This document shows, piece by piece, positions 12,460-13,984 of a DNA stretch of 57,972 nucleotides (positions are counted from its first letter, which is position 1; each line of letters opens with the position of its first letter). This DNA comes from a virus. Taxonomy: Duplodnaviria; Caudoviricetes. The position numbers and the translations under genes were made by a program. The notes beneath the pieces are model-generated. The model saw nothing but the letters and a program-made list of their open reading frames with translations. It was not told the origin of the DNA and did no database searches. Where the stretch lies: IMG/VR virus record IMGVR_UViG_3300031227_000047, positions 1-57,972 of that record; one strand, given 5' to 3'.

Positions 12460-13141
12460 ATTTAATAAAGAATCAGACATGGCGGCCCCTGTAATCGCGC
12501 TCATGGAGGCGGAGGGCTGGGATGTATATCAGGAAGTACAGGCATGGGAGCACGGCCCCGTGTGCGACCTTGTAGGCCGTATGGGGGATTTGATCTGGTG
12601 TGTCGAAATGAAACTATCACTATCGCTCGCCTTGCTCGAGCAAGCATACGCATGGAAGCGGAGAGCCAGTTATGTTTCGATTGCCGTGCCGCTGAAAAAG
12701 TCTTTTCAGAAAAGACGTTTTGTGCATCAATTATGTAACGACTACGGGATAGGCATTATCTTAGCCAGGCCACATGTAGCATCTATAGAAGAGCCTGCTC
12801 TGTTGAATCGAACGCCGTGGACTGGAAGTTTCAAAAGCAGATTATGTGAGGATCACAAAACGTTTGCTGTGGCGGGCAATGCGGAGGGAGCTCGATATTC
12901 GCCATTTCAAAAAACTAAGCATGCCCTGATTGAGATTGTTATAAACAGTCCAGGCATTACAATGAAAGCCGCGGTTGAAACAATTTCGCACCATTATGTC
13001 AATGACCAATCGGCGAGATCTTCGCTTGCACATTGGATAAATGCTGGCAAGATTAAGGGCATACGCGCTGAGGGCAAGCCGTTACGGCTTTACTATGAAG
13101 AACCAGGAGGGGAAATAAAAGGAGCTTTAGCTTCATTGTGA
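12455..13141 (+). CDS. PD-(D/E)xK nuclease-fold protein
   Basis: KESDM...VYQEV...CDLV...CVEMK...LLEQA motif order; flanked by the 31-bp repeats. Confidence 0.6.
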   Translation: MKFNKESDMAAPVIALMEAEGWDVYQEVQAWEHGPVCDLVGRMGDLIWCVEMKLSLSLALLEQAYAWKRRASYVSIAVPLKKSFQKRRFVHQLCNDYGIGIILARPHVASIEEPALLNRTPWTGSFKSRLCEDHKTFAVAGNAEGARYSPFQKTKHALIEIVINSPGITMKAAVETISHHYVNDQSARSSLAHWINAGKIKGIRAEGKPLRLYYEEPGGEIKGALASL

Positions 13142-13984
13142 ATAAGAAAGATTTGAAAAGACAAATAAAAACAGCTCATTTTTTTGCTGGAGGTGGAGGT
13201 GGGATTCTTGCTTCTGAAATATTGGGTCATGAATCTGTGCTCGCTGTCGAAATAAATCAAAGGCGTTGTGCTATTTTAGAGGAACGTAAGTCTGAGGGTT
13301 GGTTTAAAAGCTTGGAGGTTGAATGCTGTGATATCAGAGAGTTTGACAACGAACAATGGAAAGGAAAAGTGGATTGCATCTCAGCGGGATTCCCTTGCCA
13401 GGATATTTCATCTGCCGGTTCGGGCACGGGAATTAAAGGGGAACAATCAGGGCTCGTATTCGATTTGCTCAAATCAATTGCCATTATTCAACCTGGGATT
13501 GTGTTCCTCGAAAACAGTCCCAATATCAGAACCAGAGGGCGTGATGTTGTCATCGGTGAACTCATGGCGCTTGGATATTCCTGGCGCGACGGAATGCTTG
13601 CAGCCGCTCATGTCGGCACGGGCCATCTCCGCAATCGCTGGTGGTGCCTTGCTGTTAACACTTCTGGCAAGCGATGCCTCCAGGAGTCCAAATCTATTCT
13701 CGAAAGAGCGCAATATAAATCTAGTAAAGGAGTTGTTGATCCTAAAATATTGTTTAGCCAACAACTTACGCACGCCATCGAGAGGGGGGGGATTGTCACG
13801 AGACGACACAGAAATTATTAGAGATGGGGCTATCTACACAGGGCGTTTCGGCTGGTCACCGCCTGACGCCGGCGTTTGCAGAGTGGTGGATGGGTTGGCC
13901 TCTCGGGTGGACCGGATTAAAACCTGCGGAGACGGACAAGTGCCGCTACAAGCGGCGTTAGCTTGGCTATTGTTGAGTGCATGA
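13138..13984 (+). pseudogene. C5 cytosine DNA methyltransferase alpha subunit, frameshifted at G8 tract (13784-13791)
   Basis: Motifs I (FAGGGG), IV (GFPCQ), VI (ENSP), VIII (HLRNR) in the 13138 frame; motif X (RIKTCGDGQVP) in the +1 frame ending at 13984. Confidence 0.85.
13319..13961 (+). pseudogene. overlapping-frame beta subunit of C5 MTase (M.EcoHK31I-type), frameshifted at the same G8 tract
   Basis: Long alternative ORF inside alpha; third frame after G8 reads ...RLTPAFAEWWMGWPLGWTGL..., stop at 13961; start codon uncertain. Confidence 0.7.

Follow-up and report, generated by a model that had tools for sequence, protein, structure and literature searches.

Why are the motifs of a phage C5 DNA methyltransferase scattered over three reading frames around a single run of eight guanines (G8), and what does that run do to the enzyme? 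The gene in question lies in the viral genome IMGVR_UViG_3300031227_000047, analysed here as one stretch of 57,972 nt (the window), a single contig that makes up its entire assembly, with 39% G+C and nearly all long open reading frames (ORFs) on the + strand. The public sequencing runs that contain this stretch are, every one of them, labelled salt lake metagenome. On balance, we suggest that the gene is one of a large, widespread family of C5 methyltransferases found in phages and prophages, in which almost the whole length (about 240-390 codons) would code for two proteins at once, from adjacent starts. One of these would be a catalytic chain (alpha, frame 0) and the other a DNA-reading chain (beta, +1 frame), with constrained segments interleaved along the DNA in the order alpha-beta-alpha-beta-alpha. 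The G run of the salt-lake phage would then toggle the whole enzyme.

Three frames of the window, here called A, B and C, contribute to the locus (Table 1). Frame A carries motifs I, IV (with PCQ and the catalytic Cys), VI and VIII in one chain, as C5 methyltransferases do. It matches Pfam PF00145 at E 7e-30, covering only profile positions 2-181 of 324, and phrog_363, labelled 'DNA methyltransferase', over positions 46-236 of 327 (E 4.6e-44). Beyond motif VIII (13644) frame A appears to be an out-of-frame shadow of the recognition region of beta, and then comes a premature stop. Motifs IX and X are not readable together with this remainder: they lie in frames C and B, both severed from their N-terminal parts by G8, and are joined to them only when the break is read through. 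The tail of frame B reaches phrog_363 again, at positions 266-309 of 327 (E 1.1e-3), as well as phrog_32758 (E 2e-4). Frame C, which opens at 13758 because the last upstream stop is at 13755-13757, matches phrog_26627 (E 8.9e-10) and phrog_1008, another 'DNA methyltransferase' (E 1.9e-6). Frame B itself changes owner at the run. Its upstream portion consists of an open shadow of alpha motifs IV-VIII (13280-13609) and, from about 13610, a putative recognition region (MSARAISAIAGG, LLLTLLASD).

The run spells Arg-Gly-Gly in both proteins, within ERGG/LS of alpha and SRGG/DC of beta (the slash marks the break), and by frame arithmetic taking out one G makes A continuous with B, and B with C. As it stands, the G8 state encodes an alpha that lacks the GGLS segment and motif X, a chimera of the N-terminal part of beta with the C-terminal part of alpha (ORF 13319-13984), and an orphan 45-aa ORF with motif IX. 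A preliminary description of this locus had proposed both the simultaneous rescue of the two proteins by removal of a single G and the truncated and chimeric products of the G8 state. Both proposals hold, and its coordinates for the frames, the motifs, the stops, the opening of frame C and the run were all exact on recheck. The frame layout is beyond chance, and the G8 run itself, as discussed below, is not. Frame B is open for 234 codons (13280-13981), and the +1 frame of 54 other window genes has 0.076 stops per codon, with a longest open stretch of 100 codons.

We read the window alpha and beta through the run, with X at the break, and aligned them to relatives; both align unbroken over the run position. 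Alpha gives a single aligned segment from residue 10 to residue 280, with the break at 217 (53.6% identity to locus L004, E 2.6e-106). Beta, taken from GTG 13328, aligns over residues 2-210, with the break at 154 (43% identity to the +1 ORF of L001, E 1.3e-48). The likeness of frame B to the beta chains of relatives ends right before the run and that of frame C begins right after it (DCHETTQKLL vs DFPILTQKRL), frame C being 67% identical over 51 aa to the end of the +1-frame product of L003. The stretch 13607-13789 also finds the +1 products of relatives (RAISAIAGGxLLPTL) by BLASTP, at a best E of 4e-5 in a database of 49 sequences. These +1-frame products match phrog_1008 in turn (Acinetobacter phage ABMM1, E 5e-28). 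In PHROG, then, frame A and the tail of frame B are like phrog_363 and frame C is like phrog_1008; both labels read 'DNA methyltransferase' and are silent on the overlap.

The relatives were collected by scanning with frame A, which gave 423 viral, 468 genomic and 503 metagenomic related stretches, and 80 loci of each scan were kept. From these 240 loci came 220 distinct alpha ORFs, and motifs I-VIII share one ORF with motif X in 145 of them. Within 45 codons before X, a motif-IX-like word reads in +1 in 127 of these ORFs, in the frame of alpha itself in one and in +2 in none; the pattern detected no such word in the remaining 17. Reading by eye placed motif IX in +1 in all seven loci that a stricter pattern had overlooked. 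In this phage type, alpha runs from motif I to motif VIII through a variable linker to an end of the form '...QRGGLS..DA..I.AAA.YTGAF.WSPPDAGVCRVVDGLA.RVDRIK..GNGQVPLQAA', which corresponds to frame A joined to frame B at ERGG/LS. After motif VIII, the +1 frame of relatives carries the repeated units LLPTLTVCGNWNRKGAS, LPTLCASDYKSPYS and WPTPTAHNAKE and ends in G.LNP.WVEWLMGWP.GWT, which is motif IX; the recognition modules in beta vary by units. A second type, mostly from Streptomyces and Kitasatospora, confines frame 0 to motifs I-VIII and encodes all the rest in +1, and in Streptomyces phage RemusLoopin it is annotated as two overlapping 'DNA methylase' genes. Motif IX in +1 with X in neither frame was seen in only seven loci, all Streptomyces or Kitasatospora.

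Both frames are open far beyond the segments that are conserved in each. Upstream of motif VIII the +1 frame stays clear of stops for at least 123 codons in all 49 distinct loci, and in 48 of them the open stretch reaches to 30 codons or fewer from the alpha start; in the remaining genes of these loci the same frame contains 0.0395 stops per codon. The alpha linker, in turn, has no stop over 6462 codons from 58 loci, vs about 308 expected, in a class that is itself defined by X lying within the alpha ORF. No interrupted phage-type locus was found among the related loci examined, in two locus sets. We infer from these open frames that two polypeptides are probably translated separately.

Selection on the two frames was assessed by aligning the DNA of related genes and scoring which codon position is the most variable. 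Over motifs I-VIII it is the third position of alpha, both among 25 sequences (reference L034) and among 5 sequences (reference L003). After motif VIII and through motif IX it is, in the same two alignments, the first position of alpha, equivalent to the third of the +1 frame, and at motif X it is the third position of alpha again. At a finer scale, in 15 sequences, the pattern favours +1 over the recognition units, alpha over RLERAVELGGLSDLDAEAIAVAGAYT, +1 over GHRLTPAFAEWWMGWPIGWT and alpha over motif X. The same DNA serves two proteins, with the constrained segments of one interleaved with those of the other. The LPTLT and WPTPTA units stand in the +1 frame and under +1 selection, and the target-recognition region is thus predicted to sit in beta, not in alpha. 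We also considered the +1 words over motifs IV-VIII (SLAKT, SSWKT, TWPxxGM) as a second real domain and rejected them: since codon-position diversity favours the alpha frame there, they are best taken as shadows of GFPCQDIS, FLENV and motif VIII, respectively.

Separately, the segment 13881-13914, which is doubly coded motif IX directly upstream of X, matches contigs of another, more abundant genome (depth about 24, in sequencing runs X1 and X3) over 32-34 nt with two differences, and the flanks diverge on both sides. Such DNA-level conservation across unrelated phages fits constraint in two frames.

Table 1. Coordinates of the methylase locus in the window.
Feature	Position	Strand	Remarks
Frame A ORF, alpha N-part	13138..13821	+	GTG 13138; stop 13819-13821; 227 aa
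Motif I, FFAGGGGG	13180-13203	+	frame A
Motif IV, GFPCQDIS	13387-13410	+	frame A
Motif VI, FLENSP	13504-13521	+	frame A
Motif VIII, HLRNRWW	13624-13644	+	frame A
Frame B upstream of run, putative beta N-part	13280..13789	+	BLASTP to +1 products of relatives; selection in relatives
Variable base	13595	+	T in window; G7 contig of X3 has C (Thr in alpha, Arg in beta)
G8 run, break point of both frames	13784..13791	+	sole G/C run of at least 7 in the window
Frame B downstream of run, putative alpha C-part	13790..13984	+	stop 13982-13984; alpha-frame selection on homologous segments in relatives
Conserved segment LSRDDTEIIRDGAIYTG	13793-13843	+	frame B, alpha C-part; then shadow of motif IX
Motif X, RIKTCGDGQVP	13913-13945	+	frame B
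Frame C, putative beta C-part	13791..13961	+	stop 13959-13961; internal ATG 13824 (45-aa ORF)
Motif IX word RLTPAFAEWWMGWPLGWT	13860-13913	+	frame C

The relatives also indicate where beta may begin. A +1 ATG lies upstream of motif I in 34 of the 49 loci, and in 25 of the 49 it stands 5 nt before the alpha ATG, as 'ATGacATG' (the L032-L077 clade, L161 and L163 among the start regions viewed). In Acinetobacter phage ABMM1 and Vibrio phage 1.003.O a +1 ATG lies 4 nt past the alpha start, in the latter at the matching TTG. Given such adjacent starts, we suggest that one ribosome-binding site may serve both proteins. In the window the candidates for the beta start are GTG 13328, with GGAGG 9 nt upstream, ATG 13544 and ATG 13610.

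Could the two chains rebuild one enzyme? With a docking model built on our own alignments, alpha of L003 and its +1-frame piece scored 0.90 (runs 0.90, 0.89 and 0.90) vs 0.00 for the best of three controls; in the benchmark for that mark, 58 of 80 solved complexes and 2 of 110 mismatched pairs reach the same score. The runs share at least 45% of contacts, with a partner pLDDT (the model's own confidence score) of 46-48. In the docked complex, motif IX of beta (residues 132-151) touches alpha at 294-309 (motif X), at 11-16 and 34-42 (motif I) and at the GGLS segment. Because solved monomers have this packing, a pass in the docking is to be taken as likeness to monomeric C5 enzymes and not as proof of binding.

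Taken together, we propose that alpha would supply the large catalytic domain, with motifs I-VIII, the linker, the conserved 'GGLS...' segment and motif X, and that beta would supply the small domain, with the target-recognition region and motif IX. Along the DNA the constrained segments would alternate, each protein being loosely constrained where its partner is constrained. Motif IX of beta would dock on motifs X and I of alpha, and an ordinary two-domain enzyme would be rebuilt, as in M.EcoHK31I. In the window, the glycine codons of GGLS and the AGG before them would form an unbroken G run, one G above what the open frame needs. Because both proteins cross the run, alpha would be cut before X and beta diverted into the tail of alpha before reaching IX. 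The G8 enzyme should be inactive; we infer both this loss of activity and the origin of the run length by slippage. The G8 allele could revert in the same way, by slippage, and selection for switching finds no support here.

The closest known system is M.EcoHK31I of E. coli (YGGCCR), described in PMC2836561 and PMC3404938. The coding sequence of its beta chain is nested within that of alpha, entirely in a different frame. Motifs I-VIII, X and a predicted recognition region belong to alpha, and motif IX belongs to beta; both chains are needed for activity, although some tens of N-terminal residues of beta are partly dispensable. More generally, C5 enzymes have most of their motifs in the large domain, and the variable region and motif IX in the small one (PMC3404938). 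What the preliminary description said of M.EcoHK31I agrees with PMC2836561, and it had likened the present locus to that enzyme. The likeness, which we draw by description, stands: relatives have motif IX in +1, a motif-IX chain lies in a second frame inside the alpha gene, and both frames cross the run position. It has to be amended in that beta of the present family would also hold the recognition region, whereas that of M.EcoHK31I is assigned to alpha. The two differ further in that the +1 frame of our family is open over nearly the whole gene, often starting beside the alpha start, and the constraint is interleaved. In the window itself, alpha motifs I-VIII and X do not share one ORF, given the stop at 13821. 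From its sequence, we regard the present enzyme as a putative M.EcoHK31I-like two-polypeptide methylase with its recognition region in beta. A plasmid search for an M.EcoHK31I-like record showed no E. coli among 15 records listed or among the ten commonest organism names, out of 291 records.

A second comparison is with M.AquI, a C5 enzyme split after motif VIII into overlapping genes (PMC3404938). It shares this layout with actinobacteriophage gene pairs such as genes 34 and 35 of RemusLoopin: two chains split after motif VIII, from overlapping genes, with the second in the +1 frame. In M.AquI and RemusLoopin, the second chain carries both IX and X and alpha ends soon after VIII, whereas in the window type alpha continues to X. 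Among the papers that literature searches listed, judged by titles and the opening parts of abstracts, M.EcoHK31I and M.AquI were the only natural two-chain C5 enzymes, and no phage-wide two-frame family appeared. The supplementary cluster tables of PMC3711429 might still include the family as a conserved frame transition.

In cultured phages the second protein may have gone unremarked for a simple reason. Only alpha is annotated in Acinetobacter phage ABMM1 and Vibrio phage 1.003.O. Among the best 120 of 349 products like the L003 +1 ORF (E up to 0.001) in a large protein collection, the named ones are all 'hypothetical protein' and 118 of the 120 have no Pfam family. Because gene callers keep one of two fully overlapping ORFs, these methylases appear without a recognition domain.

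Several relatives are unusual. The 665-aa ORF of L157 (Streptomyces), with IX and X in frame, was considered as a monomeric ancestor and rejected: its recognition units are in +1, and the long ORF is high-GC read-through. Protein P0099, which combines PF00145 with a beta-like tail, was likewise rejected as a monomer and is a frame-shifted fusion. This relative of L010 begins in the alpha frame with motifs I-IV and goes over to +1 for a shadow stretch, the recognition units and motif IX; its join lies near C7/C8 runs of L010 (nt 331) and L016 (nt 326), counted on the trimmed alpha ORF. It represents either one more frame change tied to a homopolymer in this family or an error of sequencing. In the 480-aa protein P0116, a single frame encodes a LAGLIDADG homing-endonuclease domain (PF00961), then recognition units and motif IX, with motif X about 60 residues further on. 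This 'unfolded' arrangement may represent the second half of a methylase gene that a homing element has divided.

What, then, of the run? Because the nearest relative, from a protein-guided scan of metagenome contigs, is 65% identical, tract length can be compared in near-identical phages only through the contigs of the sequencing runs, and our allele comparison is one of assembled contigs. Runs X1 (a 6780-nt contig, depth 14.3) and X2 (2145 nt, depth 9.0) have G8. Run X3, from another sample and study, has G7 on an 800-nt contig that covers 13113-13913 at depth 4.1, together with the base change at 13595 (Table 1). At that site alpha has Thr in 9 of 17 relatives with W[RKC]D[GA], the Met of the window occurs in 0 of 17, and beta has Arg in 7 of 16. 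An intact and more typical G7 allele exists alongside the broken G8 allele. Contigs of run X4 end at 13793 and restart at 13811, at a depth of about 3.7; this could be a two-allele bubble or low cover, and no inference is drawn from it.

The run is of a kind that arises readily by chance: at least one G8 or C8 occurs in 71 of 100 dinucleotide shuffles of the window, with a mean of 1.76. It is also absent from relatives, a comparison that the preliminary description had recommended and that went against it. In 13 relatives with a GG[LV][SRQ] site, the glycines are spelled GGC GGA, GGA GGA, GGA GGG or GGC GGG, and none has a run. A two-flank pattern around the run, allowing a gap of 4-12, had 0 matches in viral contigs and 0 in metagenome contigs, from which the window's own genome may be excluded. 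Elsewhere in the gene, 11 of 81 relatives have other long runs, such as G9 in L006 and L094, G10 in L060 and C8 in L016. The runs of L006 (nt 30), L094 (nt 31) and L060 (nt 664), counted from the alpha ORF trimmed to six codons before motif I, are in frame, and two of them lie in the motif I glycine loop; these three are candidate slippage sites elsewhere in the family.

We consider the simplest account to be a plain replication-slippage frameshift by which the assembled lineage lost a methylase that the phage can do without, and would give it a probability of roughly 0.6. The G7 contig looks like a separate lineage rather than the product of rapid switching, because of its linked base change at 13595.

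The preliminary description had instead proposed a slipped-strand ON/OFF switch. In its full form, this would be selected phase variation, with a contingency tract flipping at a high rate between G7 (both subunits made) and G8 (neither) and keeping the population mixed, for example in the face of methylation-dependent vs classical restriction. G8 is short for a contingency tract. The homopolymer does lie in the sole stretch where a single base change hits both proteins, both tract lengths occur among samples of the same habitat, and the long runs of other relatives, like the passage of P0099 from alpha to +1 near the C run of L010 and L016, could be of the same nature. In type III mod genes, the phasevarions, a poly-G or poly-C run in a methylase ORF likewise sets the open frame and is a known switch (PMC3711429). 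In those genes, however, the tracts are conserved and switching has been measured, whereas the run of the window is at chance level, is broken up in the 13 relatives and has another length in one contig; it also differs from them in that a single run hits two overlapping proteins. The present gene has, as contingency genes do, a tract within the ORF whose length sets the frame, and the tract is neither beyond chance nor kept in relatives. The alleles also differ at the linked 13595, which fits separate lineages, and the other phage-type loci examined are all uninterrupted. What stands of the proposed switch is that tract lengths differ between samples (G7 in X3, G8 in X1 and X2); an evolved switch seems unlikely to us. 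An ON/OFF reading is possible, and the family architecture is the more interesting part.

An artefact of sequencing or assembly, the truth being G7 throughout and the methylase intact, is improbable. Homopolymers are error-prone, G7 is seen in X3, and X1 and X2 are possibly the source of the window. Yet two separate runs of different years have G8 on long contigs (6780 and 2145 nt, at depths 14.3 and 9.0), with no alternative path reported, and the G7 contig differs at 13595 too, as another haplotype would and a corrected copy would not.

Slightly less probable still is recoding, in which G8 would be read as G7 through RNA-polymerase slippage or a +1 ribosomal shift, or a three-piece enzyme would be assembled from motifs I-VIII, the recognition region with X, and the 45-aa motif IX ORF. 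The G8 state still encodes all the motifs, with ATG 13824 ahead of motif IX, and fragments of monomeric C5 enzymes can complement one another (PMC3404938). But relatives lack the run, whereas a programmed site would be retained, ATG 13824 has no clear ribosome-binding site before it, and no related locus examined has the three-piece form.

Least plausible of all, and at the level of the family, is a single polypeptide in which ribosomal frame shifts would bring motifs I-VIII, the recognition region, IX and X into one chain: the order of constrained segments on the DNA is that of monomeric enzymes, and Streptomyces-type relatives need only one +1 shift after motif VIII for a complete monomer, but four frame changes would be required, both frames are open far past the segments used, IX and X overlap on the DNA (about 12 residues from GWP to GDG vs about 30 in the one-frame L158), the +1 ATG adjoins the alpha ATG in many relatives, and M.EcoHK31I works as two proteins from separate plasmids (PMC2836561).

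Several observations weigh against our preferred account, a two-frame enzyme silenced by slippage. The beta start in the window is not fixed: two +1 stops, at 13253 and 13277, follow the site (13229) where the +1 ORF of the nearest relatives, L001-L003, has its first ATG, and for this reason the window beta must begin later or have a further defect. The products of both frames are predicted ones. Pfam gives beta no family (a search with the frame B tail, frame C and the +1 ORFs of four relatives returned only one chance-level zinc-ribbon line), a profile built from 40 beta pieces found 0 solved chains at E up to 1, and the fold of beta itself is weak in the docking model (pLDDT below 50). The recognition region of the window reads LLLTLL and LILKYCL where relatives read LLPTLT and LPTLLA, departures that could be decay or merely a different specificity. 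As for the alleles, G7 depends on a single contig of depth below 5, and X1 and X2 give no independent support for G8, because both may be source data of the window. Contigs also conceal minor alleles, and a G7/G8 mix within a sample would be the signature of fast switching.

The neighbours of the methylase form a phage replication module, in the order helicase, sigma-factor-like protein, a phrog_12193 gene, the methylase, primase and a DnaB-like helicase. The phrog_12193 gene (ORF 12455-13141, 228 aa, unknown function) is flanked by a 31-nt exact direct repeat, at 12429-12459 and 13112-13142, 683 nt apart. Each copy contains the end of the preceding gene, AGGAG and a GTG start, and since both starts lie in repeat copies this ORF and the methylase open with identical letters. 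The ORF looks like a gene inserted or duplicated via recombination at the repeat, and contigs of the sequencing runs break there. A nucleotide search with 12400-14900 against 50,697 phage records gave zero matches.

If the two-frame reading is right, the interleaved constraint would make this family an unusually clean case of two old functional domains, rather than a newborn ORF and its host gene, sharing the same DNA, and could serve as a test bed for the evolution of overlapping genes. With the recognition modules on a separate chain, specificity could be exchanged without altering the catalytic chain. Finally, one slippage event would silence the whole enzyme, which would bear on the restriction conflicts between phage and host if the G7 and G8 alleles really alternate.

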